From Candidatus Latescibacterota bacterium (GTDB lineage: Bacteria > Latescibacterota > UBA2968 > UBA8231): a stretch of 64,000 nucleotides of DNA. Positions 11,721 to 52,401 of this stretch are shown here, piece after piece. The first letter of the stretch is position 1; each line of letters opens with the position of its first letter. The DNA is taken from contig OZ241889.1 of NCBI GenBank assembly GCA_965203355.1, positions 1,504,001 through 1,568,000 on the forward strand, read 5' to 3'. Under the pieces are notes generated by a model. That model saw only the letters and a list, made by a program, of their open reading frames with translations, was not told the origin of the DNA and did not search any database. The position numbers were made by a program, and so were the translations under genes.

Positions 11721-11790
11721 TCTGTCAAATTTGTCTCGACGGTTCTTTTTGGCGGATACTTTTGTCGCCTAAGAAGCAACTAATAATTGC

Positions 11791-13807: not shown

Positions 13808-13823
13808 AGTGCTGGAAACCGCG

Positions 13824-31499: not shown

Positions 31500-31766
31500 T
31501 CAAGAGCATTGTACGCTTTAGGTCGAAGAAGCCTGCTGCAAGCCCACCTTGCGGCGTAGTGCATCCGCGTAGCAAGCAGATGGCGATTCTGCTCCGTGTG
31601 AATGGGTTGGGTTTCCGGCGCATTGGTGGTCAGTCATGGTAGCGTCGGCACACGGCGGCGTTCCAAATCCTCCGTCCGGCAGCGGGCGAACTGACGGTAG
31701 GGCTAGCGTGCGACAATGGGATGTGGCGCGGTTGCCGCTGTTGGGGCCAGCGGCTATTTTCCGGCT

Positions 31767-36561: not shown

Positions 36562-36719
36562 GGGGTGCTAGGCCGGAACCGACCCGAGTAGTTGATTTTT
36601 GTGCCTTGACGGGCTGGCCTGAATTTACTCTATTAACCATTTCTATGGCACACTTGTGCAAAACTTGCGGCAAGTGCGCTAGATTTTACTTCACCTCTAG
36701 CACGTTACAGGAGGCACTC

Positions 36720-39713
36720 ATGCACACTGAGAGGAGGGAGTGGCCGGTGGCCCTAGGCGCGGTGCTTTTTTGCGCCCTGCTGGCCTTGCCGGCGTTTGCT
36801 GGCAACGGCAAAATTGCTGGCGTAGTACAAGACGATTCCGGGCAAGCCTTGCCCGGAGCCAATGTGGTCGCCGAAGTGGGCGGCGAGCGAGTCGGCACCA
36901 CCGCCGATGAGATGGGGCGTTATTTCCTGCTCAACATTCCACCCGGCGCGTACTCGGTCGAAGCTAGTTACATAGGGCACCAAACGGTGCGCCAGACCTT
37001 GATCGAGGTCCGCTTGGACCTGACGACGACGGTCGATTTTGAGCTGAAGCCCGAGGCGATTGAAGGCGAGGCCATAACGGTGGTGGCCGAGGCACCGCTG
37101 GTCGAGCGCTCGCTGACGACGAGCCGGGCGACGATCGGCCGCGCCGAGCTCAACAACACCATGCCAGTGGCCGACTTGCAGGACTTGATCAACACGACGC
37201 CGAGCGTGTTTCGCGGCTATATCCGCGGCGGGCGCAAGGCCGAGGCCAAGGTGCTCGTCGATGGGATTGACGTGTCGGATACGTATTTCCGCGCCGGCGA
37301 AGGCTTGGTGACTTGGAATCCCTATGTCGATGTCAATCGCACCTCGGATGGCGAGTTCACCGCGGTCGGCGTCAACGCCAGCAACGTGCAGTCGCTGGAT
37401 ATTATCGCCGGGACCTTCAACGCCGAGTACGACGCGGCCAGCGCGGGCATCGTCAACGTGGTAACGCGCGAAGGCGGCGATGAGTTAGAGGGGCGGCTGT
37501 TTGTCCGCCGCGGCGTGGGCGGCTACAAAAATGCCGGGCCGGATGTCTATGAGGCGCAGGTCAAGCACCCAGATGGGTCTCTTTCCGATACGACCTATTT
37601 CGACCGCTACCTACAGTCGCGCGAAGCCTTGCTGGCCTCCGAGGACGAGGCCGACAAGGCCAAGGCCGAGAATTACTACATTTTCGACCCCAAGCAAATC
37701 ACCTATGGCGACAATCCCTCTACCGAGATGGAGTTTTCGCTGGGCGGCAAACTGTTGCCGCGCACCAATTTCTACTTGACCACGCGCTATCTCAACGACG
37801 AGGGACTCTTCCCCAACATGCTCAACCGCTCGCAGCGCTATTCGCTCAAGCTGACGCATCGGCTCAGCCAAAATGTCAAGCTGACCGGCAAAGCGATGAT
37901 CGACGATGGCGGTGAGTTGGGAGGTTGGGTCAATCGCAACTTCAGCGGCCGCTACGCCTATTTCCCCGAGGGAGCCTTGGGCAACAAGAAGTTGGGGACG
38001 ATGGCCTATGTGGGGATGAACCACTCGCTTTCCAACAACACCTTCTACGAGATCAAGCTCTCGCAAGTCTCGCGCATGAGCACATTCGGCTACTCGGACG
38101 ACAACGGCGACGGCATCGTCGAGCCCGACGAGAATGGCGATTTCATCTTCATCGATAGCGCCGAAGAGTCGGAAAAGTACCTAGGCGTTGACGGCTCTGG
38201 GGCCGACGCCGACGGCAACTTTACCTTTTTTACCACCAACCCCGGCAATTCGCGCAACTTCGACCTGCCCTTTGGCGACAATCAGTACCGCTTGGCGCAG
38301 GCCGGCTTCTACTTTGAAGAGCTCAAGCGCGACGTGATGCAGCTCAAGGCCGACATCACCCATCAGTACAACTATCACCACCAGATCAAGGCCGGTCTGC
38401 TGTTCCGCAGCCACGCGGTCTCGAAGCTCATGCAGCGGACGCAGATTACGGTGGGCTATTCCAACCTGCCGTACGAGATTTCCGACTACGAGCGCAATCC
38501 GAGCGAACTGGCCTTTTACGTGCAGGACAAAATTGAGTACGAAGGCATCATCATCAATGCCGGCTTGCGGCTCGACAGCTTCGACGCGGACGCCGAGCAA
38601 CTCGCCGACTTTTTCCGTCCGTCCGAAGAAGCCGAATACACCTATGAAAGCGGCGAGAACCACACTTACCGCCGCCCGATTCGCAGTGGGGCGGTTGAAA
38701 CGCGCTGGTACTTACAGCCGCGGCTGGGGATCTCGCATCCGATCAGCGAGCAGGCTGCCATGCACTATTCGTGGGGCAAGTTCTACTCGCCGCCGTCGTT
38801 TTCGTATCTCTATGAAGACTACGACAGTTTCACCAACCCAGCGTGGCCGAATGTGCCCGATGTCGAGGCCGATCCGACGACGGCCACGGCGTACGAGATG
38901 GGCTTGCAGTACAGCTTCGCGCCCGAATACTTGTTCGACGTTACGGCCTATTACCGCGACATCGAGAACTACGGGCGGCTCGGCTTTACCATCAGCCCGG
39001 CCGACGCTGGTTTTGCCAACTACAGTCTCAACACCAGCGGCGGATATGCCGACAGCCGCGGCATTGAGTTTGGGATAGAGCGCCGGTCGCAGAGCAGGAT
39101 CAACGGGCGCGTCAACTACGCATACAGCTATATCAAGGCATCGCGCAACGGCAACAACTCGACGCCTTTCCCAGACAAGAATTCGTTTTCGGTCCAAGCC
39201 GCAACCGATGTCCAAGCCTTGGATACGGCACTGGACAACAAGGAGCGGTTCAATACCTACGAGGCCAATGTCAACGGCGGCGGCAATCCGCTGGTCACCG
39301 GCTACGACCGAGCCCACCGCATCGCCTTCACCCTGCTGGCCGAATTGCCAGCAGAGATCGGTTTGACCTTGATCTCGACGGCGGAGAGCGGCTTCAACTA
39401 CAATGTAACGGCCACCACGGACGATCCGCGCGAGCGCGAGACCTCGCAGGCTCCGTGGAACATGCGCACGGACCTGCGCCTCCATCGCAGCCTTGCGTTG
39501 GGTGGCTGGTCGCTAGGGGCTTTCTTTGAGGTGCGCAATGTTTTCGACCGCGAGAATATCCTGACGTGGGACAATCGCAACATCCGTTCCACTTCCCAGT
39601 GGGAGGAACAGGGAGACCCGACGGGCGATCTCAATCGGGCCTTTACCAGCCAGAGTCAGGCGATTTACGATACCCCGCGCATGGCCAATTTCGGCGTCAC
39701 CGTGGATTTCTAG
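36720..39713 (+). CDS. TonB-dependent receptor with N-terminal carboxypeptidase-regulatory-like domain
   Basis: AGGAGG RBS; GKIAGVV..LPGANV, plug IRGGR..VDGID..GTFNAEY, LQPRLGISHPI; C-terminal F. Confidence 0.9.
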   Translation: MHTERREWPVALGAVLFCALLALPAFAGNGKIAGVVQDDSGQALPGANVVAEVGGERVGTTADEMGRYFLLNIPPGAYSVEASYIGHQTVRQTLIEVRLDLTTTVDFELKPEAIEGEAITVVAEAPLVERSLTTSRATIGRAELNNTMPVADLQDLINTTPSVFRGYIRGGRKAEAKVLVDGIDVSDTYFRAGEGLVTWNPYVDVNRTSDGEFTAVGVNASNVQSLDIIAGTFNAEYDAASAGIVNVVTREGGDELEGRLFVRRGVGGYKNAGPDVYEAQVKHPDGSLSDTTYFDRYLQSREALLASEDEADKAKAENYYIFDPKQITYGDNPSTEMEFSLGGKLLPRTNFYLTTRYLNDEGLFPNMLNRSQRYSLKLTHRLSQNVKLTGKAMIDDGGELGGWVNRNFSGRYAYFPEGALGNKKLGTMAYVGMNHSLSNNTFYEIKLSQVSRMSTFGYSDDNGDGIVEPDENGDFIFIDSAEESEKYLGVDGSGADADGNFTFFTTNPGNSRNFDLPFGDNQYRLAQAGFYFEELKRDVMQLKADITHQYNYHHQIKAGLLFRSHAVSKLMQRTQITVGYSNLPYEISDYERNPSELAFYVQDKIEYEGIIINAGLRLDSFDADAEQLADFFRPSEEAEYTYESGENHTYRRPIRSGAVETRWYLQPRLGISHPISEQAAMHYSWGKFYSPPSFSYLYEDYDSFTNPAWPNVPDVEADPTTATAYEMGLQYSFAPEYLFDVTAYYRDIENYGRLGFTISPADAGFANYSLNTSGGYADSRGIEFGIERRSQSRINGRVNYAYSYIKASRNGNNSTPFPDKNSFSVQAATDVQALDTALDNKERFNTYEANVNGGGNPLVTGYDRAHRIAFTLLAELPAEIGLTLISTAESGFNYNVTATTDDPRERETSQAPWNMRTDLRLHRSLALGGWSLGAFFEVRNVFDRENILTWDNRNIRSTSQWEEQGDPTGDLNRAFTSQSQAIYDTPRMANFGVTVDF

Positions 39714-39726
39714 GAGGAATAGCAAG

Positions 39727-42243
39727 ATGATTAAACGCATGAAAATTGCGTCCCGGCTGGCGACCGTGTTGGTGGTCGCCACGGCCGGGACGATCACCGC
39801 GCAAGAGGGCGGCGTGTTCACGGCTGGCGATCTGTGGGATTCCTTCTTTCCCAGCAACGCCGGTTCTTGGTATCGCGAAACCGATGACGATCCGACCGCC
39901 CGCTTTAATCTCTTCCGCGTCGGCAATTGGGATCGCCAGTGGACGACGCCGACCCAGACCTATCCGGGCGGCGAGAATCTGCACCTGCCTTGGGGCCAGG
40001 ATTTGCAGATGGCGGAATACAGCCCCGAAGAGATCAATATCACCACCGACAGCAATGCGCCCCGGGCCAAGCACTATTTGCACGGCTTCTACACCAGTAA
40101 CTTGGATGGTGCTGGCGATGCGGCGCGCAACTTTACCAGCCCGGGTGCCGAATGGGTTGATGCCGACCGCAACGAAATGCGCTACGAGGGCGCGATGCCG
40201 ACCAACCTCGGCGTTGATGTGCGCTGGCGGATGCGGCAATTTGCCGCCAATCACGGCAACCTCAACGACTTCATCGTCATTGAGTTGGAGCTTACCAACA
40301 CCGGCGTACTCGACGCCGATGGCGATGGTACGCCCGAAAAGACCGACAACCGCATCCACGCGCTCACCCTGCATCTGCAAAACGAGCCGATCAATTCTAT
40401 GACGAACCGCAATAATGGCCGTCGCGGTGCTTCGGGGTGGTTTACCGGCCCGACCTCTGGGTACGATGCCACGCCCGACGCCAGCGGGGCGCCGTGGGAT
40501 GTGCCGGTGGTGTTTACCGGCCCGTCGCCGAGTACGCTCGGCGAGCCGCATCCGGTCTTTGGTTCGTCGACCGGCTGGTCGGCCGATGGTGCGCGCCTGT
40601 TGGGCGTTACCATGCGCAGTCGGGGATATTACTACGACATCTACAATGGAATGCAGTGGATCGCCGCCAAACAGGGCGCGTTGCCAGCAAGCGGCAGCAG
40701 CGCCAGCGCAGCCGACAAGCACACCATCTACGACAGCCACCCCGTCGGCGTAGGTGCCGAGCGCGGTTGGTTCACTTCCGTGCTCAAGGACGACGGCGGC
40801 TACCGCAATCCACGCGAGAATCACATCTACGCGATGGCCGCGTTTTTCGACGGCGAACAGATCGGCAGCCGCGCTTGGGACAAGGGGGCCGCTATCCAGA
40901 ACGAGAGCAGCTTGGTGCCCGACCCCAACTGGTTCGATCCCGATCATCCAGACATCGTCCCCGGCGACCCGCTGTCGTTCGTCAACGCCGTGCGGCCCGC
41001 TGGCGAGCGCGGCCAGCCCTTGGGCGACATGAAGTACAACAACACCTTCATCCAAAACTGGGAGGTCGATCCGAGCCGTTCGCTGGACGACCAACCCGAT
41101 TGGGCGTGGACGCAGGGCTACGCGATTGACCACAACTTCGACGGTATGTTGCAGGTGGGCATCGGCCCATTCTCCTTGGAGGTGGGCGAGACCATCAACT
41201 TGGTGCTCGTGGAGTACGCGGGGTTCCGGTTGCAAGGGGCCCGCGCCGCCCGCAGCACGGCGCAGTGGGCGTATGAAAACAATTTCGACGCTCCCGCGCC
41301 CCCGCCGACGCCCCACATCGAAGTAGCGCCCAACACGGACGTCAAAGTCGATGTCAAGTGGGACGACCGGGCCGAAGCGGCCCCTGACTTTGCTGGCTAC
41401 AAGGTCTATCGCTCGACCCTGTTCCCGCGCGTCAATTCGCTCGATGTCGGCCTGCGCATCATCGACCGCTACCACGAACAGACCGAGGAAAATCCCACGG
41501 ACGCACAACTGGCCGCCTTTGGTGCTGACAACAACCCCAACATCAGTTCTGGATCCTACAAGCCGCAGGAGCCAGCGGCGTGGGGGCCTTATCGGCTCAT
41601 TGCCCACGTGCCTAGCAGCGAGTTGGGCAACTACCTCAACGACGGGCCGGACAGCGACGAGTTCAAATACAAGTTTGCCGATACCAGCGACTTGGTGACC
41701 TTTGGGTTCACCTATTATTACTATGTCGCGGCGTACGATAACGAGTCGGGCGAGATCAATGGCCAGCCCTTTAGTTCGCTGGAGACGCATCGGCACAACT
41801 TTAATGGCCGCGATGGATTGTGGAAGGACACGTACCACTACGCGACCGCCAGTTCGTTTTTCCCCGGTACCTTGGCGGGGCAAAAGGCCATTGGCGCGCC
41901 CTTTATTCTCAAAGCACCGCTGGCCGATGCCGGCGCACTCGTAAGCGGCGAGCTCGCCGTCCGCGTGGTGCCCAATCCCTACAAGAAGGGTGCGCTACAC
42001 GATACCGGCACCGAGCACAAGATGCTCTTCATCAACCTGCCGACCGGCACCAAGATCACCATCTTTGACGTGGCTGGGCAGGTCATCGACGTGCTCCACT
42101 TCGACAGTACCAACCCGTTCGACGGCACGCTGTTTTGGGACATGTTTTCCAAGGACGGCATTGAGGTAGCCAGCGGACTGTACATCTACGTGGCCGAGTA
42201 CCCGGGCGGAACGCAGACCGGGCACTTCGCCATTCTGCGCTGA
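39727..42243 (+). CDS. Secreted protein with FN3-like segment and T9SS-type C-terminal domain
   Basis: Signal peptide; PPPTP..VKWDD..FAGYKVYRS; VRVVPNPY..FINLP..IFDVAG..WDM..ASGLYIY. Confidence 0.8.
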   Translation: MIKRMKIASRLATVLVVATAGTITAQEGGVFTAGDLWDSFFPSNAGSWYRETDDDPTARFNLFRVGNWDRQWTTPTQTYPGGENLHLPWGQDLQMAEYSPEEINITTDSNAPRAKHYLHGFYTSNLDGAGDAARNFTSPGAEWVDADRNEMRYEGAMPTNLGVDVRWRMRQFAANHGNLNDFIVIELELTNTGVLDADGDGTPEKTDNRIHALTLHLQNEPINSMTNRNNGRRGASGWFTGPTSGYDATPDASGAPWDVPVVFTGPSPSTLGEPHPVFGSSTGWSADGARLLGVTMRSRGYYYDIYNGMQWIAAKQGALPASGSSASAADKHTIYDSHPVGVGAERGWFTSVLKDDGGYRNPRENHIYAMAAFFDGEQIGSRAWDKGAAIQNESSLVPDPNWFDPDHPDIVPGDPLSFVNAVRPAGERGQPLGDMKYNNTFIQNWEVDPSRSLDDQPDWAWTQGYAIDHNFDGMLQVGIGPFSLEVGETINLVLVEYAGFRLQGARAARSTAQWAYENNFDAPAPPPTPHIEVAPNTDVKVDVKWDDRAEAAPDFAGYKVYRSTLFPRVNSLDVGLRIIDRYHEQTEENPTDAQLAAFGADNNPNISSGSYKPQEPAAWGPYRLIAHVPSSELGNYLNDGPDSDEFKYKFADTSDLVTFGFTYYYYVAAYDNESGEINGQPFSSLETHRHNFNGRDGLWKDTYHYATASSFFPGTLAGQKAIGAPFILKAPLADAGALVSGELAVRVVPNPYKKGALHDTGTEHKMLFINLPTGTKITIFDVAGQVIDVLHFDSTNPFDGTLFWDMFSKDGIEVASGLYIYVAEYPGGTQTGHFAILR

Positions 42244-42265
42244 ACCGAACAGGGGAGACTTGAAA

Positions 42266-43288
42266 ATGAAAGTGTTAAAACTCATTGCAGTGCTGGGGTT
42301 GGCCCTCTCGTTGGCGCAACCCGTTGGCGCCGATGTGCGCAAGTCTGGCCTGACTGGTGCCGCGTTTCTCAAGGTTGGCGTGGGTGCCAGACCGGTCGCG
42401 CTCGGTTCGGCCTATACGACCGTGGCTGGCGACGTCCACCAGCTATTTTGGAACCCAGCCGGTGCGTCTTTGAGCGGCGGCGAAAGCCAAGTACTGCTGT
42501 CGCACAACTCGTGGATCGCGGATTTGTCGCACGACGCCTTTGGGTTCGCACGCGACATGGGCGACATGGGCACCTTGGGCATTGGCGTGGTGACGCTCGG
42601 GTTGAGCGACATTGACGCCGACCGCGACGTGGTGCCGCAGTTCGTCCTCGACGCGGGAACGTTCGATCCCAACGACACCGAGACCGCGGACACCTACAGC
42701 TACCGAGATTTGGCTGTGGGCGCGACGTGGGCGCGCAGCATCACCGACCGACTCAGCCTAGGGGCGACCGGCAAAATCGTGAGCCAGACCATCGACGGTG
42801 TCAACGCCACCGCGTATGCGGCTGATTTCGGTGCGCTCTACCGCGTCAATTCCACGTACACCATCGGTGCGCGGATCAACAATCTGGGCAGCGATCTGAA
42901 GTTCTACGACATCGGTGCGCCGCTGCCGCTGATATTCAGCATTGGCGCGGCCGCCGCCGTCTTTGACGACCCAGACAGCGGTATGAAGGTGACCCTGCTC
43001 GCCGATGCCACTAAGCCGCAAGACGCCGAGCAACTCGTGTACGCGGCGGCTGAGGTGGAGCTTTTCGACATGCTCAGCCTTCGCTCCGGCTACAAGTACA
43101 ACTATCAGGGCGTAGAGGATGAGAAAGTCGATGAGGTCAGCGGCGCGGTCGTCCCGGCTGGCCGCAGTGAGGAGGGGCTGACGGCTGGGCTAGGTCTCGA
43201 GTTGAGCATGGCCACAGTCGATTACGCCTTTACCTCGTTTGGCATCCTCGACAGCGTGCATCAGTTTTCCTTGCAGTTCCGCTTCTGA
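42266..43288 (+). CDS. PorV/PorQ family outer-membrane barrel
   Basis: AAFLKVGVGARPVALG, LFWNPAG; C-terminal VDYAF..LDSVHQFSLQFRF. Confidence 0.85.
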   Translation: MKVLKLIAVLGLALSLAQPVGADVRKSGLTGAAFLKVGVGARPVALGSAYTTVAGDVHQLFWNPAGASLSGGESQVLLSHNSWIADLSHDAFGFARDMGDMGTLGIGVVTLGLSDIDADRDVVPQFVLDAGTFDPNDTETADTYSYRDLAVGATWARSITDRLSLGATGKIVSQTIDGVNATAYAADFGALYRVNSTYTIGARINNLGSDLKFYDIGAPLPLIFSIGAAAAVFDDPDSGMKVTLLADATKPQDAEQLVYAAAEVELFDMLSLRSGYKYNYQGVEDEKVDEVSGAVVPAGRSEEGLTAGLGLELSMATVDYAFTSFGILDSVHQFSLQFRF

Positions 43289-43315
43289 GGCTGCGCTGCG
43301 ATTTGCTGAGAAAAT

Positions 43316-43354
43316 AAGCCTCCGGGGCCTTTGGGCTTTGGAGGCTTTTTTCTT
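43316..43354 (+). terminator. Rho-independent terminator
   Basis: AAGCCTCCGGGGCC-TTT-GGGCTTTGGAGGCTT followed by a T-tract. Confidence 0.85.
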
Positions 43355-43825: not shown

Positions 43826-44100
43826 GCGGACTGTCTAGTTAGGTTTATAGAGGAAATCCGCGCACGAAAACCGGCCCTGCCGGGTTGAGGTTTTGGCTGC
43901 TGGTCGAGCGTTCTCGGCAGTTGGCGATTGATGCCGATGAATCGAAGCCCCCAATCTCAGGTACATGGCGAAAATTTTTAGAATGACAAAGGCAATACGG
44001 GAAAAATGGCAGATGGCGTAGGCAAATGTGGGCGCGTAGGCGATTTGTAAAATCATTGGCGAGCGCGATGCGACCTTGCGAAGCGATCCGTCAGAAGGCG

Positions 44101-47100
44101 ATGGTTGCCCTCCGCGTAAGTACGGGGGTTCTAGCCTTGCTGCTCACGAGCTCGGCCCTCGCCGCCGAAACAGAAGCGCGGCTGCGGCGCACAGTGGAGA
44201 CGCTCTCGGCCCCGGCCTCGCGGATGACGGGCTATCCGGGGGCTGCGGTAGCCCGCGAGTGGCTGGTCGCCGAGCTAGAGGGTTTGGGAGTAGCCGAATT
44301 CTACCGACACGAGTTCCCGGTGTTGGTGCCGATCGACGAGGGATTCTGGCTCGAATGCGCCGGGGAGCGGATCGAATTGTTTGGTGTCTGGCCCAACTTG
44401 GTGCGGACGCCGACTCTGCCAGCCGAAGGACTTGAGGGGTCGTTGGTGTACGGCGGGGATGGCAGCCTGCTCGAGCGGCAGCAGGTGGCTGGGCGGATCA
44501 TCCTCCTCGACTATGGCTCGGGCGCAGCTTGGGTGGATGCTTTTCACTTGGGGGCTGAGGCCGTGGTGTTTTTGGAATCGGCTGGGGCACATCGCAAGGA
44601 AGCCGAGCAAAAGTTTCTCGACGTGCCGGCCGACTTGCCGCGTCTCTATGCGCGCAAAGACGCGGCCGAGCGGTTGCGGGTGTTGGCCATGTCGCGGCCG
44701 CAGGTGCGATTGCGGGGGCGGATGGCGTGGCAGGAGGTGATCGCGCAGAATTTGGTCGCCGTGATTCCCGGGCAAGATGCGGCACTGAAGGAGGAGGTCG
44801 TCTTTCTCGCCGCGCATTACGACGCAGTGTCGCCGGTGCCGGCGTTAGCACCGGGAGCCGAGCAAGCGGCGAGTGCGGCCGCGCTGTTGGAATTGGCCCG
44901 GGGATTTGCCGAGCGGCCGCCCCAGCGCACGGTCGCGTTGCTGTGGCTGGCTGGCCACTTTCAGAACATGGCGGGGATGCGCCATTTCGCGCCGTTGTTG
45001 CTGGCGGCCGCTCGGCAGCGAGAGGGCGGGGTGGAAGAGACGGCGCTTTTGCGGCGACTCAGCGGGCTAGAAACGCGCTTTTTGGTGGGTTTGGATCTGT
45101 CGTCGCACAGCCCGCGGCTCGGGGCGTTCAGGCCGCGCGATCCGTATCGCGTCTCCTTGCTCGCGCCGCCGATCACCGAGCGGTTGCTAAAGCTGGTAAC
45201 GGCGTACGAAGACGCTGCGTTGGGCGGCAAGCAGGTGCTGGTCAATGGCCTGAAGCAGGACTTTGCCCGCCAGGGGCTTGGGGGGATGGCGCTGACGGTG
45301 CCGTTGGATGCGGCGGTAGCGGCCCTCACCGGATGCCCGGCGTTGGCCTTTTGCACGGTCAACGACAGCCGCGCCCGTTTTGACTCGCCCGTTGATGATT
45401 CTGGAGCGGTGCGCTTTGACTGGTTGGCTGGTCAAGTCGCGCTGCTACAGGGTGTGCTGCCCGCGCTTATTGACGACCCGGAGTTAGAGCCGTGGGCTTG
45501 GGGCAACGATGCGTTTGGCACCATTCGCGGGGAAGTGGTCCACTACGGGCCGCGCAGCTATCTGCCGGATCAGCCTACGGCTGGGGCCTTGGTGCGGGTG
45601 CGGCTGCGCCATCCGACGTTGGCTGGGGTGCGGCCGGATTTTTGGGCGGCAGCGGATGATTCGGGGCGGTTTGCCATCCCCGGCGTTGAATCGGGCATCA
45701 TCTACACGAAGCCGGTGCGGTTGGAGGCGTATCGACTTGATGCGGAGACCGGGCGGGTGACGGACGCGCCGGACTGGGGGATCAATGGGGAACGCAAGTT
45801 GCCGGGACGTGCGTTGACGGTGACGATGGATAGTCCCGAGGACGAGGTGCAGATCGTCACCGCGCCGCTGCGGGGAACGGCGCTATTTGGGATTTTTGAT
45901 CCGCGCAATTTATCAACCCTAGAACGGATCCAAGCCATTGACGCGACGCTGGAAGCCGAGCCGGTGATGTACGGGGCCTGCCTGCCGCTGACCGCTCCAG
46001 AAATGGAGCTATTCAGCTATGTGAATCGGGTGGGGTCGTGGACGGAGCCGGTCGGCGTGATTTTTACGCAGCCTAATGAGCGGTTTAAGGCCGTGATGGC
46101 GACGGGCCGCTATGGGTTGGGACGACGGCTGCTGTTGCTCAATGGGACGGAGGACGTTCCGAGTGGGGTGGGCTATGCGGTTGATGGGAAGGGGCGCATC
46201 GTGGAGACGGTGTATCGGGTGGCTGCCGACCTACACGTGCTCAATGGCGAGCGGATTGATCGGCTGGAGCGACACGGTGTGCGCAATGGGCGGCTGGCGG
46301 CCTTTAACGAGCGGTCGGCCGGGTTGCTCGCAGAAGCAGAAGTAGCACGCGCTGAGCACCGGCACCGGGACTTTTTCGATCGGGCGCGGCGCGCTTGGGC
46401 ACTGGCGGCGGCGGCCTATCGGGACGTGGAGCGGACGCAAGCCGGGGTGGTGCAGGGCGCGCTTTTTTTGTTGGCCGTGCTGATTCCGTTTGCCCACTTT
46501 GCCGAGCGGTTGGCGTTTGGGTTTGCCGATTTGCGGCGGCAGGTATTTGCCTATTTCGCGCTCTTTCTCGTGGGCTTTGTCGCCCTGCGCTATGTGCATC
46601 CGGCCTTTGAATTGTCGATCTCGCCGGCGATTATCTTGCTCGGCTTCGTCATATTGGCGTTGGGGATCTTGGTCACGTTTCTGGGGATGTCGCGGTTGAA
46701 CCGGGAGTTGCAGGAATTGGGCAGTCGGCGCGGACAGATCGCGGTGCAGCGGTCGGGTGCGGTGCTGACGTCGGTCGCCGTGGGGTTGGCGCATTTGCGG
46801 CGGCGACCGTGGCGCACGGGGCTGACCTGCGCGACGCTGGTGCTGTTGACCTTTTCGGTGCTGTCCTTTACCTCGGTCCGCGCTGCGCTGCACACCAATT
46901 GGATTGCGATCGGCGAGGACGCGGCGTACGAAGGCGCGTTGGTGCGGATGCCGGGCTGGCAGGCCATGGAACTGGCAGGCTACGACCTATTGCGCGATTG
47001 GTTTGGCGACGAGCAGGTCGCGCCGCGGGCGTGGCTGTCGGTGGGATCGCTGGCGTCTTCCTATCGAGTTGAGCGGGATGACGCAGCGGAACGCGCGGTC

Positions 47101-48465
47101 GGGGTTTGGGGGTTTGTCGGGCTGGCGGCGCAGGAAGCGAGGGTCCTCGGCCCAGCGCTGGTGGCCGGGCGGTGGCTGCGGCCCGGGGAAGAGGACGCCT
47201 GTCTGTTGCCGGTGGGCTTGGCGGATTCTTTGGGGGTCCGCGCCGAGGGCTTGGAACGGGTGCGGATTTTTGGCGAGGTGTTTCGGGTGGTTGGGTTGCT
47301 CGCCGATGACGCGCTGGATCGGCTCGATCTGAATGGCGAGCCCCTGACCCCGTTGGATCCAGAAGCGCAACAGCCATCGGAAGCGGAAGTGGGACGCGGG
47401 CAGGGCGGAAAGTTGCGGCCGTTTGCCCATTTGCCCGCGTCGGCGACACCGGTCTTGCCGTTTGCCGCGCTGATGCGGTGGGAAGGGGTGCGGCTGGCGT
47501 CGGTGGGAATCCGGCTGGATGGGAACGCGGAGGCAACGCGGAGTGCGCTGGTAGAGCTGGCCGAGACCTTGGATTTGAACCTGTTCGCTGGCTTTGGCGG
47601 GCAGTGCTTGCTGGTCAATTCGGTTGGGGTGGCGTCGGTGTCGGGATGGGGGTCGCTGATCGTGCCGCTGCTGATCGCCGGATTGATCGTGTTTAACACC
47701 ATGCTCGGGGCTGTGTACGAGCGGACGCAGGAAATCGGCACCTTTAACGCCGTTGGCTTAGCCCCCGGGCACGTCAGCGGGCTGTTCATAGCGGAAGCCG
47801 TGGCGTTGGGCGTGGTCGGCACGGTCGCGGGATACCTGTTAGGGCAAGGCGCGGCGCAGCTTTTGGCCCAAGGGGGTTTTTTGCCCGGCTTGGAGCTGAA
47901 TTACTCGTCGCTAGGGGCCGTGCTCACCGTTGGCGCGATCGCGCTGTTGGTGGTGGCGTCGGCGCTCTATCCGGCGCGCATGGCCGGGCGGATCTGCACG
48001 CCGGGCATTGAACGGCGTTGGCGGTTGCCGGTCGTCGAGGGCGAGCATTTGCGCGTGCAACTGCCTTTCTCGTTGGCGCGGCGCGAAGCGCTCGGCATGG
48101 CGGCGTTTCAAGCGGAAGCGTGGTCGGCCAATCAAGAGCAGTCGATCGGGGCGGGATTTTACGTCGAAGCCTTGCAGGTGGAGCAGGTGGGGGAAAAGGT
48201 GCAGGTGGCGGCGCGGGTGTGGTTGGCGCCGTTTGACCAAGGCGTGGTGCAAGATACCGCGATGGAGATAGAGCCGGGGCCGGACCCGAATTATTGCGAC
48301 ATTCACGTTGACTTGGCGTTGGCGGCTGGCGATCTGGCGACGTGGCAGCGCGTGGTGCGCACCTTTTTGGACGATGTGCGCAAGCAATTTTTGATCTGGC
48401 GCACCTTGGACGCGGATAGTCGCCGCTACTACGCCGAGCAGTTGCCGCAGTGGGAGCGGGGCTGA
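44101..48465 (+). CDS. M28-peptidase-like domain fused to a FtsX-like ABC permease
   Basis: Signal peptide; SRMTGYPG, PA-like region, AAHYD; C-terminal VYERTQEIGTFNAVGL..LFIAEA FtsX motif. Confidence 0.82.
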   Translation: MVALRVSTGVLALLLTSSALAAETEARLRRTVETLSAPASRMTGYPGAAVAREWLVAELEGLGVAEFYRHEFPVLVPIDEGFWLECAGERIELFGVWPNLVRTPTLPAEGLEGSLVYGGDGSLLERQQVAGRIILLDYGSGAAWVDAFHLGAEAVVFLESAGAHRKEAEQKFLDVPADLPRLYARKDAAERLRVLAMSRPQVRLRGRMAWQEVIAQNLVAVIPGQDAALKEEVVFLAAHYDAVSPVPALAPGAEQAASAAALLELARGFAERPPQRTVALLWLAGHFQNMAGMRHFAPLLLAAARQREGGVEETALLRRLSGLETRFLVGLDLSSHSPRLGAFRPRDPYRVSLLAPPITERLLKLVTAYEDAALGGKQVLVNGLKQDFARQGLGGMALTVPLDAAVAALTGCPALAFCTVNDSRARFDSPVDDSGAVRFDWLAGQVALLQGVLPALIDDPELEPWAWGNDAFGTIRGEVVHYGPRSYLPDQPTAGALVRVRLRHPTLAGVRPDFWAAADDSGRFAIPGVESGIIYTKPVRLEAYRLDAETGRVTDAPDWGINGERKLPGRALTVTMDSPEDEVQIVTAPLRGTALFGIFDPRNLSTLERIQAIDATLEAEPVMYGACLPLTAPEMELFSYVNRVGSWTEPVGVIFTQPNERFKAVMATGRYGLGRRLLLLNGTEDVPSGVGYAVDGKGRIVETVYRVAADLHVLNGERIDRLERHGVRNGRLAAFNERSAGLLAEAEVARAEHRHRDFFDRARRAWALAAAAYRDVERTQAGVVQGALFLLAVLIPFAHFAERLAFGFADLRRQVFAYFALFLVGFVALRYVHPAFELSISPAIILLGFVILALGILVTFLGMSRLNRELQELGSRRGQIAVQRSGAVLTSVAVGLAHLRRRPWRTGLTCATLVLLTFSVLSFTSVRAALHTNWIAIGEDAAYEGALVRMPGWQAMELAGYDLLRDWFGDEQVAPRAWLSVGSLASSYRVERDDAAERAVGVWGFVGLAAQEARVLGPALVAGRWLRPGEEDACLLPVGLADSLGVRAEGLERVRIFGEVFRVVGLLADDALDRLDLNGEPLTPLDPEAQQPSEAEVGRGQGGKLRPFAHLPASATPVLPFAALMRWEGVRLASVGIRLDGNAEATRSALVELAETLDLNLFAGFGGQCLLVNSVGVASVSGWGSLIVPLLIAGLIVFNTMLGAVYERTQEIGTFNAVGLAPGHVSGLFIAEAVALGVVGTVAGYLLGQGAAQLLAQGGFLPGLELNYSSLGAVLTVGAIALLVVASALYPARMAGRICTPGIERRWRLPVVEGEHLRVQLPFSLARREALGMAAFQAEAWSANQEQSIGAGFYVEALQVEQVGEKVQVAARVWLAPFDQGVVQDTAMEIEPGPDPNYCDIHVDLALAAGDLATWQRVVRTFLDDVRKQFLIWRTLDADSRRYYAEQLPQWERG

Positions 48466-48524
48466 ATGTTGCGCGGGAGCTGGAAAATTAGGACAACGCA
48501 AGGAATGGTCGAAAGATTGACAAA

Positions 48525-50429
48525 ATGGCCGCGCTGCGCTTAGCCGCCCTCATCATCGGCATCACGGTCGCAAGCGGGTGGTTGCTCCAGCGCGTCGAGT
48601 TGCTGTACAACGGTCCGCATTTGGCCGGGGCCGGGAGTGCGCCCGGGGCCCAGGTTTTTCTCGCCGTGCCCATAGGGGTTTTGGCCGCCGTTGCGCTAAT
48701 GCGTCGCTTGCTCGGGCCGGGGGATCGGGCGGTGCTTTACGCCGCACTGGTCATCGGGGTGTCGGCGACCGCTTCCGGCCTGATGCACCGGTTTTTGCCG
48801 GGCTTGGTGACGGGTTTTTACGGAGGTTTTGCCCAGCCAACGGCCCCCTATTATCGCTTTTTGCAAGTCGTCCCGGCTTGGCTGGTGCCCGGCGGTCCGA
48901 ATGAAGCGCCGGCCATCGGAGCATTTGAAGGCGGCGCGGCCGTGCCGTGGGGGGCCTGGCTGTGGCCGTTGGCGATGTGGAGTGTGTTTTTCGGTGCGTT
49001 TTTTCTGACCTGCTTCTGCTTGGTGTGGCTATTGCGGCAACGCTGGTTGGAGACCGAGCGGCTGGGATTTCCGCTGCTGGAGGTTCCTCGCGCCCTCATT
49101 GCCGGAGACCTGTTTGGCCAGCGGCTGTTTTGGTGGGGCGCGTTGGTGCCGGGGGTGTTGTTGGGGATCAATGGCTGGCACCACTACGCGCCGTCCGTGC
49201 CCGCGATTCCCACAATTTTGTACATGGAGCATTTTCTGCTCGACGATCCGTGGAAAGCCATGGCTCCTTTTGAGTCGCCGTTCCACTTTGAGTTTGTCCC
49301 CCTGTTGGTGGGGGCGGCGTTTCTCGCTCCCGTGGAGGTGTCGTTCAGCACGTGGTTTTTTTATTTGCTCACCCGCGTGCAGTTGCTGGTGGCCCATTTC
49401 CTCGGACGCTCGGAATATCGCGGCGATTTCATTCCCGGGCACGGATCGCCGTGGCTAGATTGGCCGAGTCACTTTCCCTTTTTTATGACGCAGGCGCGTG
49501 GCGGCTTGCTGTTTTTGGGGCTGTTCAGTCTGTGGTCGGCGCGGCGGGCCCTGGCCGCGGCCATCTCTTGGCGCAGTCCGGCGACGTGGGGGCTGGTGAT
49601 TGGGCTGCTGGTGCTGTGGGCGTGGACTACGGCTTTGGGGGTGCCGCCGCTGATGGGCATTGCGGCCCTGGTGCTGGTGTTGCTGTTGGCGTTGACGTTT
49701 GCGCGGCTGCGGATCGACGGAGGCTTGCCCATTGTGGGGATGCCGCAGATCGTGGGCTATCTGTTCTTCGTGGTCTTGGGAACCGGCGCTGGGCATTTTG
49801 CCGACGAGACCTACATGGGATTTGGCTTCTTGGCGGTGTTTGGCTTTACGATGATTGGCCTCTGGCCCGCCTTGCAATTTGAGGGGCTGAAATTGGCCGA
49901 GATTCACGGCGTGTCGCCGCGCCGCTTGATTTGGGGGATGGCTTTGGGATTGGCCGTTGGGTTGGGGGCCGGCTATGTGTTTTCGCTGGAAGCGATCTAT
50001 GAGCACGGGCTGTTCGCCTTGCAGGAACAGGGCGGGGCGCGGGCCGAAGCACGCATTGGCCGCTACTACAACTATTTGTTCAAAGACGCGGGCACCGTGG
50101 ATGGGGGCACGGACTGGGTGCGCTTGGGATTTCACGCGGGCGGGGCGGGCTTTACCTATTTTTTGGCGTTGATGCGCCAACACTTTCTCCGCTGGCCCTT
50201 GCATCCAATGGGCTTTGTGTTTGGCACGGGTTTTGGCTGGCTGGTGTGGGGGTCGGTGTTGTGCGGCTGGCTGTGTAAGTGGTTGGCGGTGCGCTACGGC
50301 GGAGCGCAAACCTACCGGCGGGTCATGCCGTTTTTCTTGGGGATGATTTGCGGCGAGGTCGCCATGCGGCTGGTGTGGGCTGCGGTCGCGCTGTTGCAAG
50401 GCGAAATGGGAGGCGGATACCGACCGTGA
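48525..50429 (+). CDS. Polytopic membrane protein, DUF6785/DUF6784-like
   Basis: WLETERLGFPLLEVP, WPLHPMG and PFFLGMICG motifs; paralog of 31767-33710. Confidence 0.7.
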   Translation: MAALRLAALIIGITVASGWLLQRVELLYNGPHLAGAGSAPGAQVFLAVPIGVLAAVALMRRLLGPGDRAVLYAALVIGVSATASGLMHRFLPGLVTGFYGGFAQPTAPYYRFLQVVPAWLVPGGPNEAPAIGAFEGGAAVPWGAWLWPLAMWSVFFGAFFLTCFCLVWLLRQRWLETERLGFPLLEVPRALIAGDLFGQRLFWWGALVPGVLLGINGWHHYAPSVPAIPTILYMEHFLLDDPWKAMAPFESPFHFEFVPLLVGAAFLAPVEVSFSTWFFYLLTRVQLLVAHFLGRSEYRGDFIPGHGSPWLDWPSHFPFFMTQARGGLLFLGLFSLWSARRALAAAISWRSPATWGLVIGLLVLWAWTTALGVPPLMGIAALVLVLLLALTFARLRIDGGLPIVGMPQIVGYLFFVVLGTGAGHFADETYMGFGFLAVFGFTMIGLWPALQFEGLKLAEIHGVSPRRLIWGMALGLAVGLGAGYVFSLEAIYEHGLFALQEQGGARAEARIGRYYNYLFKDAGTVDGGTDWVRLGFHAGGAGFTYFLALMRQHFLRWPLHPMGFVFGTGFGWLVWGSVLCGWLCKWLAVRYGGAQTYRRVMPFFLGMICGEVAMRLVWAAVALLQGEMGGGYRP

Positions 50430-52396
50430 CGGCTAGCGAACTGACCAGTTACCGCGACCTGATGAAGCCCCCGACGCGCTTCCGCGAGGGCTTTACCATC
50501 CGCACTGTGGCCGGGGCGTTCTTCGTCGGCTTTATCATGATGCCCGGTGCTATTTACATGGGCCTGATTGCGGGTGCATCGCTCGGCGCGGCTGCCGAGT
50601 GGGTGACCATCATCCTGTTTTCCGAACTGGCGCGGCGTTCCTTTTCCGCGCTGACGCGCCAAGAAATTTACCTGATCTACTACATTGCCGGCGGCTTGGC
50701 CGGCGTCATTGGCGGCACCATGCTGGCCGGGGGGCCGTTTGGACAACTCGTGTGGAACCAGTACCTCGTGCAGTCGCAGGCCGCGGCTGGTTTTGGCATT
50801 GCCGAGCACATCCCGGAGTGGGTCGCGCCGCCGATAGATTCCGATGCGCTGATGGGGCGCAGCTTTTTGCACCGGGCGTGGATCCCGCCCATGGTCGTGC
50901 TCGTTGCGTCGCAGTTTTTGTCGCGGGTCGAGTGGTTCACGCTCGGCTACATCCTCTTTCGCATCACGTCCGATGTGGAGCGTTTGCCCTTTCCGTTGGC
51001 GCCCGTCGCCGCGCAAGGGGCGACCGCGCTGGCCGAGAGCGATGAGGAGCGGGATAGTTGGCGCTGGCGGGTTTTCTCGGTGGGCATGGGAATCGGGTTG
51101 CTGTTCGGCGCGGTATACGTGGGTTTGCCGGCACTGACCGGATTGATCGCCAGCGATCCCATCGTCCTGCTGCCCATCCCGTGGATCGACCTGACGCGCA
51201 CGACAGAGACCATTCTGCCGGCTGCGCCCTTGGGTATTGGCACGGACTTGGGCCTAGTGTTGTTGGGCATGGTGCTGCCGTTTTGGATCGTCGTTGGCAC
51301 GTTTGCCGCGGCCATGGTCCACGCCTTGGGCAGTCCGATTCTCTACCACGCTGGCATGTTGACGCACTGGCGGCCGGGCATGGACGCGATCCTGACGAAC
51401 TTCGCCAACGACATTGACGTGTGGATGAGCGTGTACATTGGCGCGGGTGCGGCTGTGGGCGCGATTGGCTTGGTCCACGCCGTGCTGTCGGTGCGGGCCT
51501 CGCGCCGTCAGGGCGGACATCGCCCGTTGCAGGATACGCCGGTCGGCCGGGGCGACTTCCCGCTGTGGATGGCGATTGGCGGATACGTTCTATCGACGCT
51601 GGCGATGATCTGGCTCTGCGTGTTGTTGCTCGAAGACGACGAGTTTCCGCTGATCTTTTTGCTGCTTTTTGGCTTTGTGGTGACGCCGGTGATTTCGTAT
51701 GTCAATGCGCGCATGGCCGGGTTGACCGGACAGTTGGTCAGTTTTCCGTTGCTGCGCGAAGGTGCTTTTATTTTGAGCGGGTACAAAGGCATTGATATAT
51801 GGTTCGCGCCCATTCCGTACTCCGATCACGGCCGGCGCGCCCAGCTCTTCCGCGAAGTGGAGCTGACCGGGACGCGCTTCTCGTCGATTCTCAAGGCCGA
51901 GCTGTTGCTGTTGCCGCTGAGCTTGGTCTGCGGTTTTGTGTTTTGGTCGCTGGTCTGGCAGATGGAACCCATTCCCTCGCCGACCTTCCAATACGCGCAG
52001 ACGTATTGGCACCTGATCGCGCTGCGCCAGTGCTTGTGGTACTCGGCGACGTTGGGCGGGGAAACGCTGTTTGATCAGGCGATTAAGGGCTGGTGGATCT
52101 TGGGGAGTTTTGTGATGGCCGGGGGGCTGTTTGGGGTTATGTCGTGGTTGGGGTGGCCGATTTCGCTGGTGTACGGGTTTGTGCGCGGCCTTGGGGGCTT
52201 GCCGCATTTGCTGATCCCGGAGATGGCCGGGGCCCTGTTGGCCCGCTATTGGCTGGAGCCGCGCTTTGGCGTGCAGCAATGGCGGCAATACGCACCGGTG
52301 TTGTTGGCTGGATACGCTTGCGGCATGGGCTTGATCGGCATGTCGGCGGTGGCCATTGCGTTGATATCTAAATCGGTGACGCAGTTGCATTATTGA
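50426..52396 (+). CDS. OPT-superfamily-like membrane transporter
   Basis: GTG overlaps the upstream stop; FREGFTIRTV, DVERLPFPLAPV motifs; many TM helices. Confidence 0.7.
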   Translation: MTASELTSYRDLMKPPTRFREGFTIRTVAGAFFVGFIMMPGAIYMGLIAGASLGAAAEWVTIILFSELARRSFSALTRQEIYLIYYIAGGLAGVIGGTMLAGGPFGQLVWNQYLVQSQAAAGFGIAEHIPEWVAPPIDSDALMGRSFLHRAWIPPMVVLVASQFLSRVEWFTLGYILFRITSDVERLPFPLAPVAAQGATALAESDEERDSWRWRVFSVGMGIGLLFGAVYVGLPALTGLIASDPIVLLPIPWIDLTRTTETILPAAPLGIGTDLGLVLLGMVLPFWIVVGTFAAAMVHALGSPILYHAGMLTHWRPGMDAILTNFANDIDVWMSVYIGAGAAVGAIGLVHAVLSVRASRRQGGHRPLQDTPVGRGDFPLWMAIGGYVLSTLAMIWLCVLLLEDDEFPLIFLLLFGFVVTPVISYVNARMAGLTGQLVSFPLLREGAFILSGYKGIDIWFAPIPYSDHGRRAQLFREVELTGTRFSSILKAELLLLPLSLVCGFVFWSLVWQMEPIPSPTFQYAQTYWHLIALRQCLWYSATLGGETLFDQAIKGWWILGSFVMAGGLFGVMSWLGWPISLVYGFVRGLGGLPHLLIPEMAGALLARYWLEPRFGVQQWRQYAPVLLAGYACGMGLIGMSAVAIALISKSVTQLHY

Positions 52397-52401
52397 GGGC
52401 G

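Follow-up and report, generated by a model that had tools for sequence, protein, structure and literature searches.

The window, by which we mean the whole 64-kb stretch of DNA that was analysed, carries the three co-oriented genes that had already been recognized from the sequence alone, here called A, B, and C (Table 1). The open reading frame of gene A begins at 44026, and a database cluster uses Met15 (44068) as an alternative start; translation from 44101 gives a product that opens with MVALRV and continues into a hydrophobic, signal-like stretch. From the N- to the C-terminus, the protein consists of this segment, a head with a PA domain and an M28 fold (PA-M28), two beta-sandwiches, a helical stalk, three extra transmembrane helices, a MacB/FtsX module, and a C-terminal domain. 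The likely start of gene C lies 32 nt past the stop of gene B, and a hairpin separates gene A and its followers from a receptor unit upstream.

Table 1. Features of the locus and of related genes in the window
Feature	Position	Strand	Basis or remark
Genes A, B, and C, co-oriented	44101-52396	+	earlier observation confirmed
Gene A, giant permease subunit, ~1454 aa	44101..48465	+	ORF 44026-48465
N-terminal signal-like hydrophobic segment (MVALRVSTGVLALLLTSSALAA)	44101..44166	+	hydropathy/sequence, predicted
PA-domain + M28 aminopeptidase-like head, residues 44-483, pseudo-peptidase	44155..45474	+	AF2 model, Foldseek, profile alignment
Altered active-site motifs H264-Y265-D266, P276-GAEQAAS-283, A309-G310-H311-F312	44815..44961	+	alignment
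Two beta-sandwich domains, residues ~497-704	45514..46137	+	secondary structure of predicted model
Stalk, three long helices entering the membrane, residues 728-811	46207..46458	+	predicted model
Three extra TM helices (808-826, 840-858, 868-886)	46447..46683	+	hydropathy topology
MacB/FtsX-type module: TM1 (933-951), periplasmic domain, TM2-TM4 (1212-1314)	46822..47967	+	Pfam + topology
Cytoplasmic C-terminal domain, residues 1322-1479, family-specific	47989..48462	+	homologue alignment + searches
Gene B, DUF6785+DUF6784 polytopic protein, 634 aa	48525..50429	+	Pfam 277 and 90.1 bits
Gene C, OPT-fold polytopic protein without Pfam family, 644 aa	50462..52396	+	ORF 50279-52396; likely start 50462
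Stand-alone DUF6785+DUF6784 paralogue	31716..33710	+	Pfam 438 and 84.6 bits; Met at 31767 = residue 18
Upstream unit: TonB-dependent-receptor-like OMP, 838-aa protein with weak T9SS sorting-tail match, PorV/PorQ-family protein	36606..43288	+
Terminator-like hairpin, 14-bp stem + T-run, after PorV-family gene, closing the upstream unit	43316..43347	+

The sequence-only reading had described gene A as an exported protein of about 1450 residues with an M28-like domain, and this domain turned out to be a genuine PA-M28 fold. Pfam detects Peptidase_M28 over residues 242-322 only (36.2 bits, cutoff 21.3), and the AF2 model of the head (pLDDT 91.1) together with Foldseek reveals the entire M28 alpha/beta fold with its PA-domain insert. 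The fold is shared with PA-domain M28 aminopeptidases (BSAP/YwaD, PaAP, the Aneurinibacillus aminopeptidase), and with the pseudo-M28 proteins Nicalin and transferrin receptor (TfR), at Foldseek E-values from 2e-22 to 1e-16; 2ek8, 8acg, and 6hc6 gave values near 1e-21, and TfR and GCPII values near 1e-16. Among PDB chains, profile alignment likewise picked out 2ek8 (E 3.6e-21) and Nicalin (E 4.4e-8). From active M28 enzymes, however, the head differs at the positions that matter for catalysis. That HYD is kept, while GADDNASG has become GAEQAAS and the EE position reads AGH, had been noted before and holds in the alignments. In the profile alignment to 2ek8, the catalytic Glu is replaced by H311, which is invariant in 15 gene A homologues, and the Glu zinc ligand by F312. 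The remaining zinc ligands (HxD His, bridging Asp, later Asp, and SDH His), whose identities we assumed to be those of the Aeromonas enzyme, are not preserved as a set. The HxD His (the His97-equivalent) is present as H264, a position that varies between Y, H, and C in the family and is Tyr in most homologues; the Asp-rich loop (GAxDDxSG region) lacks one residue and has E279-Q280; and the SDH region aligns with L-D-A, with Ala at the position of the His. D357 may retain the later ligand Asp, and E279 and D357 would both occupy zinc-ligand positions, judging from an alignment with a one-residue gap and from motif spacing. Alignments with homologues and with PDB profiles thus agree with the earlier suggestion of a catalytically altered peptidase domain, and the head is best read as non-catalytic, like Nicalin and TfR.

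The membrane part of gene A contains, as proposed, an FtsX permease domain of the type VII class (PF02687, residues 1212-1322, 55 bits against a cutoff of 25.5). The periplasmic core domain of MacB (MacB_PCD) scores 15.5 bits over residues 932-1094, which is under the cutoff of 27, and reaches 34.5 bits, above the cutoff, in a relative (L033); PF12704 is annotated in many gene A homologues. Hydropathy gives a loop of 260 residues between TM1 and TM2-4, and, in keeping with this, the ectodomain is predicted to face outward and the C-terminal domain to face the cytoplasm. Fifteen diverse homologues share the TM2-TM3 loop, ERTQEIG...GLAPGH, without change; it corresponds to what we take to be the ATPase-docking helix in MacB. 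In the block of extra transmembrane helices, which includes an ERLAFGF motif at residue 827, the homologue alignment shows P821, E827, R828, H858, and P859 to be invariant. The C-terminal domain is specific to this family and has no Pfam or Atlas match; it matched 1594 representative proteins at E <= 1e-3, and in almost every one of the 150 matches listed it lies at the C-terminal end or close to it.

The two downstream proteins had been called OPT-like and mutually related, with a common ERLxFPL motif and a third paralogue at 31767, and all of this could be substantiated. The motif is found at residue 178 of gene B, 173 of gene C, and 206 of the paralogue; gene B and the paralogue pass the gathering scores of both DUF6785 and DUF6784 (PF20581, PF20580) and are 28% identical (E 6e-39). 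Gene C is related to them at the profile level only: BLASTP against gene B and the paralogue gave E-values of about 0.3, and hhalign of gene C with DUF6785 a probability of 93% (E 3e-7). No Pfam family, including PF03169 (OPT), matched gene C of the window, and sub-threshold PF03169 matches occurred in 4 of 30 members of the gene C family; the best score of any relative was 23.5 bits, under the cutoff of 25.8. The gene C model (pLDDT 80.4) nevertheless has the OPT fold, as the sole Foldseek matches were 7wsr and 7wst, the barley Yellow Stripe 1 transporter (TM 0.61-0.70 over about 670-685 columns, E about 1e-12, 14-15% sequence identity), and the next matches fell to TM values of about 0.1.

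Across 72 related gene A loci, no gene accompanies gene A more constantly than a gene C-type gene (54/72), and the check for conserved co-occurrence proposed with the first reading had a positive outcome across phyla. The absence of an adjacent ABC ATPase is likewise true for the window, in which the sole ABC ATPase found is of the Opp/Dpp type (18425-19522); no MacB-type ATPase lies in the window or in the 10-kb flanks of window-type or Latescibacterota-type loci. In 15 of the 72 loci, however, a LolD/MacB-type ATPase orthologue lies within the flanks of gene A. These orthologues are 70-91% identical across phyla, are nearest to LolD, MacB, and FtsE among NCBIfam models (best LolD, 228-234 bits, under the cutoff of 307.75), and have intact-looking GPSGSGKST, LSGGQ, and DEPT motifs, presumably Walker A, signature, and Walker B. 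In 8 of the 15 loci, the ATPase gene adjoins a gene for an FtsX-only protein of 214-238 aa, which by hydropathy has four transmembrane helices, with a loop of some 50 aa in place of a periplasmic domain, and which shares the TM2-TM3 loop motif of gene A. The complete genomes of two close relatives encode one ATPase orthologue each, 73% identical (next best 55%) and far from gene A; in one of them (G001), the ATPase gene again adjoins the small FtsX gene, 2.2 Mb from gene A. As the proteins of these relatives are 89-97% identical, the clade of the window presumably also has a distant locus for the ATPase and the small FtsX protein. An orthologue of the latter was present in all five further genomes from other clades, and among 150 genomes of the phylum of G001, both genes occurred in 130, gene A only in 7 (two of them assemblies of just 0.8 and 1.6 Mb), small FtsX only in none, and neither in 13 (Fisher p = 4e-14, uncorrected for relatedness), an association within one phylum that is confounded by shared ancestry.

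The composition of the system is therefore well supported. Gene A very probably encodes the large permease subunit that engages the substrate in an asymmetric ABC machine of type VII (MacB/LolCDE-like). The single FtsX module of this subunit very probably pairs with the minimal four-helix FtsX protein and a LolD/MacB-type ATPase, both at a distant locus in this clade, with the constant OPT-fold gene C and the variable gene B (DUF6785) as functional partners. The pairing of the two FtsX proteins itself we infer from the synteny at eight loci and from the co-occurrence. To our knowledge, there is no counterpart for an OPT-type protein that is genomically coupled to an ABC permease, and we found no literature on the A/B/C system, a membrane machine that is widespread in bacteria but apparently unstudied. 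The closest parallel is LolCDE, in which two different FtsX-type permease subunits share a LolD-type ATPase, as we propose here, and which also works on the periplasmic side. In contrast to LolCDE, the ATPase stays under the LolD cutoff, the heterodimer is putative, one subunit is a bare four-helix protein, the other has some 1450 residues with a pseudo-peptidase head, three extra transmembrane helices, and the C-terminal domain, and OPT-fold partners are present. With MacB, the system shares the FtsX C-terminal domain, a probable MacB-like periplasmic core domain, and a related ATPase class, whereas its ATPase is unfused and its ectodomain far larger; the neighbourhoods examined contain neither a MacA- nor a TolC-type partner.

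What such a machine might do is a more tentative matter, as the substrate and the direction of transport are inferred. The explanation that we consider best, albeit with reservation, takes the system for a LolCDE-like mechanotransducer, an asymmetric type VII ABC machine whose receptor head is a pseudo-peptidase and which acts with OPT-fold permeases on a peptide-like substrate. ATP binding and hydrolysis in the cytoplasm would be relayed via the transmembrane helices and then the stalk to the head in the periplasm, whose retained PA-M28 fold would offer a conserved polar pocket (Y/H264, D266, E279, Q280, H311, and D357). The head may bind a peptide-like ligand, perhaps via its free N-terminus, and would not cleave it, having lost the catalytic Glu along with two to three of the zinc ligands. 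The captured ligand would then be handed to the OPT-fold permeases and cross the cytoplasmic membrane. This sequence of capture, hand-over, and import is a plausible but tentative reading, and within it import is favoured over export: characterized OPT members are importers, and hints of peptide import come from a Peptidase_M55 D-aminopeptidase gene between A and B in six close relatives and from the upstream TonB-type receptor unit in this clade. That receptor might feed the machine, as the sequence-only reading suggested; the terminator-like hairpin lies between the two units, and outside the clade in which gene A identity is 57% or higher the receptor trio does not accompany gene A.

The type VII ABC systems characterized so far either work outward or act at the periplasmic face of the membrane, and some neighbours point the same way. 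The OPT-fold protein or the ABC part itself could carry a peptide-like or envelope precursor from the cytoplasm to the outer face, from which the type VII ABC unit would extract it and pass it outward, as LolCDE does with lipoproteins, while the pseudo-M28 head holds the cargo. Operons of the deep clade include a gene for a PqqD-like peptide chaperone (19/72 loci) and one for a conserved protein of about 311 aa and unknown function (20 loci), PilZ and GGDEF genes neighbour the deep-clade loci L056 and L031, and GT2 glycosyltransferase and RmlD genes stand beside the small FtsX-ATPase pair in G001; with these neighbours, export or envelope work fits better than import. L026 has two M16 peptidase genes upstream, and the near-universal occurrence of gene A in the phylum of G001 (137/150 genomes) would suit a housekeeping role in the envelope. 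However, neither a precursor peptide nor a modifying enzyme was recognized in the examined operons, the PqqD-like and 311-aa genes are absent from the flanks of window-type systems, and the importing OPT relatives and the D-aminopeptidase gene argue against an outward direction, so that we regard export as rather unlikely.

Less probable again is a regulator that does not transport by its ABC part, in the manner of FtsEX-EnvC, in which EnvC, bound to FtsX, combines a coiled coil with a degenerate LytM domain. Movement of the stalk, powered by ATP, would expose the head, which would bind and activate, or sequester, a separate periplasmic enzyme, and the OPT-fold permease would recover the products. 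In both systems, long helices connect an FtsX-type module with a peptidase domain whose catalytic site is degenerate; in gene A this domain is of the M28 type and fused, whereas in EnvC it is an M23/LytM domain and bound. Pseudo-M28 proteins such as Nicalin act as scaffolds. Against this stands that the neighbourhoods examined contain no conserved periplasmic hydrolase gene, and that the small FtsX protein matches cell-division FtsX models only weakly (29-38 bits against cutoffs of 225-255). Nor did we see any link to cell division.

We return to our preferred reading of an ABC machine with its ATPase, and to the claim from which the analysis started. The proposal of a new, ATPase-independent transporter with the FtsX module as a mere scaffold agreed with the ATPase-free window and flanks, but it fails because the same operon in distant phyla carries a LolD/MacB-type ATPase and the minimal FtsX protein, and because the genomes of close relatives encode the ATPase elsewhere; the co-occurring small FtsX protein and the invariant TM2-TM3 loop speak against it as well, and we consider it very improbable. 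The sequence-only reading is thus partly supported. Its own counter-scenario of an ordinary ABC exporter, with an intact M28 active site and a cognate ATPase elsewhere, proved correct for the ATPase, as seen in relatives, and wrong for the active site. That A, B, and C are functionally unrelated chance neighbours is scarcely credible: the position of the DUF6785 gene does vary (A-B-C, A-C-B, and B-A-C), and some relatives have insertions between A and B, but of the 48 loci that have 2.5 kb or more to either side, all except L027 and L058 have a gene C-type or DUF6785-type gene with gene A (46/48), and these come from records named as at least eight phyla, with identities of gene A as low as about 31%.

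The sequence-only reading of this locus had described a membrane system without an ATPase, and it is this part of the description that has to be abandoned. It had noted that no ABC ATPase adjoins gene A, the gene for a giant (~1454 aa) MacB/FtsX permease with a PA-M28-like head; this stood for the window, where the sole ABC ATPase is of the Opp type and lies 25 kb off, whereas in other phyla an ATPase gene is found beside gene A. When 96 neighbouring ORFs from 14 diverse related loci were searched with Pfam, an ABC_tran ATPase was identified in L026, L031, L033, L039, L054, and L056, and a protein of 214–238 aa that comprises little beyond an FtsX domain (the small FtsX) in L026, L031, L039, and L056. 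By tblastn, the same ATPase, 70–91% identical across phyla, was recovered in 15 of the 72 related loci, and the small FtsX adjoins it in eight of the 15. Its nucleotide-binding motifs look intact, and the nearest NCBIfam families are LolD, MacB, DarD, YbbA, and FtsE, all under their cutoffs. Furthermore, two complete genomes were searched of relatives that share 92–97% identity with the window in the proteins of genes A, B, and C, and each encodes one orthologue of the ATPase at 73% identity, with the next best match at 55%. In G001, a close relative's genome, the ATPase gene is located at 1.73 Mb and gene A at 3.94 Mb, and the gene for a small FtsX of 233 aa, which is 52–56% identical to those of other phyla, lies directly beside that of the ATPase. 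The small FtsX has four transmembrane helices with only ~50 residues between TM1 and TM2, and thus no periplasmic domain. An orthologue was present in all five further genomes from other clades. In the Poribacteria genome G153, the small FtsX is encoded ~4 Mb from gene A, with the ATPase gene beside gene A, and the Poribacteria loci L049, L052, L054, L061, L063, L066, and L070 have the ATPase within the operon. The ATPase finding changed our interpretation: we place the system within the known type VII ABC machinery, in which its architecture and its set of partners are both unusual.

The ATPase and the small FtsX are a syntenic, co-occurring pair. In 150 genomes of the phylum of G001, searched alike with gene A and small FtsX queries, the small FtsX was found in 130 at E ≤ 1e-20, with a single match each, and gene A in 137 at E ≤ 1e-30, often with several matches, those listed for one genome falling at as many as three clearly distinct places. 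Both were present in 130 genomes, gene A only in seven, the small FtsX only in none, and neither in 13 (Fisher's exact p 4e-14, a value that ignores relatedness; the 13 genomes with neither may all belong to one clade). Of the seven genomes with gene A only, two are assemblies of 0.8 and 1.6 Mb. The gene A family has many members and is near-universal in this phylum, and for "orphan" FtsX permeases, the data mean that the ATPase can lie megabases away. The G001 pair of small FtsX and ATPase genes has as neighbours two genes for GT2 glycosyltransferases, one for an RmlD-type reductase, and one of the TauE family. In L056, the genes immediately 3' of the ATPase gene encode a PilZ-domain protein and GGDEF/GAF proteins, and in L031, the ATPase gene is followed by a GGDEF/GAF gene, which hints at control by c-di-GMP.

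For gene A, Pfam gave a Peptidase_M28 match restricted to residues 242–322, an FtsX match, and a sub-threshold MacB periplasmic core domain. Hydropathy indicates a signal-like segment, three transmembrane helices at 808–886, TM1 at 933–951, a 260-aa loop, and TM2–4 at 1212–1314, a layout that would put the N-terminal 770 aa on the outside and the final 158 residues within the cell. The short motif ERLAFGF at the end of the first extra transmembrane helix is similar to the ERLxFPL of gene B, gene C, and the gene B paralogue, and its E827 and R828 do not vary among 15 homologues. The ectodomain (residues 44–812) was modeled by AlphaFold2 on a 30-sequence alignment with relatives from other loci (mean pLDDT 91.1, pTM 0.91), and the modeled secondary structure comprises an alpha/beta head of ~440 residues, followed by a pair of beta-rich domains and by three long helices. 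In Foldseek searches of the PDB, the best matches to this model were PA-domain M28 aminopeptidases (2ek8, PaAP 8acg/8ac7, and BSAP 6hc6, E 2e-22 to 1e-20), followed by the transferrin receptor and glutamate carboxypeptidase II at ~1e-16.

The altered peptidase domain that had been recognized from the sequence holds as a pseudo-peptidase. The ectodomain profile was aligned to PDB sequences to obtain the active-site equivalences, and the roles of the aligned residues as zinc ligands or base are presumably those known from the Aeromonas aminopeptidase. The H-x-D of M28 enzymes corresponds to Y-Y-D in the gene A family (H264-Y-D266 in the window protein), APGA-(N/D)DDA to APGA-EQA with a one-residue deletion, A-E-E to G-H311-F312, and S-D-H to L-D-A (427–429). 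The alignment thus shows a degenerate active site, in which an invariant His appears to replace the general-base Glu, Phe probably takes the place of one Glu ligand and Ala that of one His ligand, and Tyr is the apparent counterpart of another His ligand in most homologues. Y265, D266, P276-G-A, Q280, A281, H311, and D357 are invariant or nearly so in diverse sets of 15 and 30 sequences. As the replacement residues are conserved, the comparison argues for a putative conserved binding site rather than decay. The ectodomain profile also matched Nicalin (E 4.4e-8), an M28-like protein that functions as a non-catalytic scaffold.

The label "OPT-like", which the earlier reading had given to the two partner proteins, turned out to be right, as indicated by a fold match for gene C and a profile match between gene C and DUF6785. 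Gene B and its paralogue are clear DUF6785+DUF6784 proteins by Pfam. Gene C fell into no family in Pfam or NCBIfam, and BLASTP related it to gene B and the paralogue at E ~0.3 only, so that profiles had to be compared. With hhalign, a 30-member profile of gene C relatives matched a 16-member DUF6785 profile with a probability of 93% and E 3e-7 over 442 aligned columns, and this comparison shows a profile-level link between gene C and DUF6785. Pfam OPT matched four of the 30 gene C relatives weakly (best E 2.4e-5), one relative reaching 23.5 bits against a cutoff of 25.8. Profile searches of PDB sequences gave a single chance-level match for gene C (E 1.4) and none for DUF6785. The AlphaFold2 model of gene C (pLDDT 80.4, pTM 0.82) matched only two PDB entries, both of barley Yellow Stripe 1 (E 2e-12 and 1e-11, TM 0.61–0.70), with all remaining structural matches at TM near 0.1. 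Yellow Stripe 1 is a member of the OPT family, and the model shows a predicted OPT fold for gene C.

The three genes that had been noted at 44101–52396 were confirmed by an ORF scan of the window and by their domains (see table). The gene A start gives a Met that is followed by a signal-like hydrophobic stretch, and gene C most likely starts 32 nt past gene B rather than at an overlapping GTG at 50279. An intergenic gap of ~0.7 kb separates a terminator-like hairpin from gene A. In this 5' region, Rfam gave a ctRNA match below threshold on the hairpin and a chance match to a snoRNA; in the whole window, no riboswitch or other Rfam family reached the gathering score, and a promoter scan of 43000–53000 returned no sigma-70-like site. 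Downstream, the nearest start of a plus-strand ORF of at least 100 aa that is clear of gene C lies 337 nt beyond it. A 325-aa ORF downstream of gene C belongs to no Pfam family and has only weak FliH-like NCBIfam matches; elsewhere, it was found at full length in one very close relative only (L005), the L002 copy being cut at the locus end.

Features of the window and of related loci
Feature	Sequence	Position	Strand	Remarks
Gene B paralogue	window	31716–33710		DUF6785+DUF6784
Trio upstream of gene A	window	36606–43288		TonB-dependent-receptor-like OMP with CarboxypepD_reg; 838-aa protein; PorV/PorQ-family protein
Terminator-like hairpin	window	43316–43347		14-bp stem; after the PorV-family gene
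ORFs of genes A, B, and C	window	44026–52396		three ORFs in one orientation
Gene A	window	44101–48465	+	MacB/FtsX permease
ERLAFGF of gene A	window	46504–46524		residues 827–833
Gene B	window	48525–50429		DUF6785/DUF6784 protein
Gene C	window	50462 (most likely start)		OPT-fold protein (predicted)
325-aa ORF	window	52734–53711		
Small FtsX–ATPase pair	L081 (G001)	10990–14333		with neighbouring genes
PilZ and GGDEF/GAF genes	L056	9909–11125		
GGDEF/GAF gene	L031	19859–21064		
Peptidase_M55 gene	L003	14330–15163	−	
UPF0182 gene	L058	14741–17560		959 bits

The neighbourhood of gene A is conserved. A pattern scan with one genome per species yielded 612 candidate stretches, 473 of which contained a relative, and 72 loci were kept. 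The co-occurrence of the partners was borne out: a gene C-type gene or DUF6785 is present in 46 of the 48 loci whose flanks extend for 2.5 kb or more on each side, L027 and L058 having neither. A 623-aa ORF downstream in L027 was ruled out as a DUF6785 relative (probability 0.1%), and in L058, a UPF0182 polytopic membrane protein is encoded directly 3' of gene A, the usual place of gene C. Gene C-type genes occur in 54 of the 72 loci, usually immediately 3' of gene A. The place of DUF6785 varies, with the order A-B-C in the window clade, A-C-B in the clade with 41–45% identity, and B-A-C in another clade, and seven loci have DUF6785 without gene C (L022, L028, L040, L044, L045, L047, and L064). 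In deep clades, genes for a PqqD-like protein (19 loci) and a ~311-aa protein (20 loci) follow gene C; the latter has no relative in Pfam or NCBIfam and no named one in the ESM Atlas, where it matched unnamed clusters only. A second paralogous system of Latescibacterota (L059, L062, L067, L050, L042, L055, L065, and others) has the order DUF6785–A'–C'–~311 aa–PqqD-like, with a C' that is ~140 aa longer, and no ATPase within the 10-kb flanks. G002, another close relative's genome, contains both the window-type system (L005) and the second system (L059). In Poribacteria (L049, L052, L054, L061, L063, L066, and L070), gene A encodes 2386–2509 aa, with ~800 extra ectodomain residues. A fusion of a short FtsX with gene A in L033 was dropped, as the gene A match begins at 2103 and the start is thus probably over-extended. 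The trio upstream of gene A, in which the PorV/PorQ-family protein scores 170 bits against a cutoff of 90 and the 838-aa protein has no Pfam family and a weak match to a T9SS sorting tail, accompanies gene A at loci of at least 57% identity with a spacing of ~0.1 to 6.5 kb, and was not found in deeper loci. A gene for a Peptidase_M55 (DppA-like D-aminopeptidase) lies on the opposite strand between A and B in L001, L002, L003, L005, L009, and L011, where gene A is 91–93% identical, and is absent from the 59-nt A–B gap of the window.

With regard to mechanism, gene A, the small FtsX, and two ATPase copies may assemble into an asymmetric LolCDE-like complex, in which the gene A head would bind a peptide-like ligand without cleaving it, and the OPT-fold proteins would carry this ligand across the membrane. 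We favour import as the direction of transport, since characterised OPT proteins are importers, since the probable ancestor of the head is an enzyme that holds on to free N-termini, and since the clade of the window has, close by, a gene for a cytoplasmic D-aminopeptidase and a receptor unit of the outer membrane. Export or a hand-off within the envelope is a serious rival to import: the PqqD-like chaperone gene points to it, as do the neighbouring PilZ/GGDEF and glycosyltransferase genes and the tendency of known type VII ABC systems to work outward. A regulatory role resembling that of FtsEX-EnvC comes third. Beyond the favoured import, we consider it a speculative and rather doubtful possibility that the system is a hybrid primary/secondary transport machine, in which an OPT-fold permease would be physically coupled to a type VII ABC mechanotransducer that has a pseudo-aminopeptidase receptor head, and several paralogous giant permeases of a cell would draw their energy from one common minimal FtsX–ATPase pair. 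Such sharing is suggested by the single small FtsX match per genome as opposed to the up to three places of gene A, and group II ECF transporters, with their shared module, would be a parallel.

The gene A/B/C system would add to type VII ABC machines a fused pseudo-enzyme receptor, a bare four-TM partner subunit, and a genetic link to OPT-fold permeases. It also gives a first lead to the function of DUF6785/DUF6784 and of the gene C family, which has no Pfam model. The system matters for its breadth and for being wholly uncharacterised: our literature search, which covered sources other than subscription journals, found no paper on the gene A/B/C system or on DUF6785. Of 8000 scored candidates from the database, 187 are relatives of gene A at E ≤ 0.001, full-length down to ~35% identity, and the records with gene A have titles that name Latescibacterota, Gemmatimonadota, Armatimonadota, Poribacteria, WS1, Zipacnadia, Omnitrophota, and Nitrospirota. 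The ESM Atlas gave no usable match for the C-terminal cytoplasmic domain of gene A. In a search of 1.84 billion proteins, this domain matched 1594 representatives (50% identity clusters) at E ≤ 1e-3, 1436 of them at E ≤ 1e-10, and in nearly all of the 150 matches listed, it is located at or near the C-terminus, the shorter ones being fragment-like.
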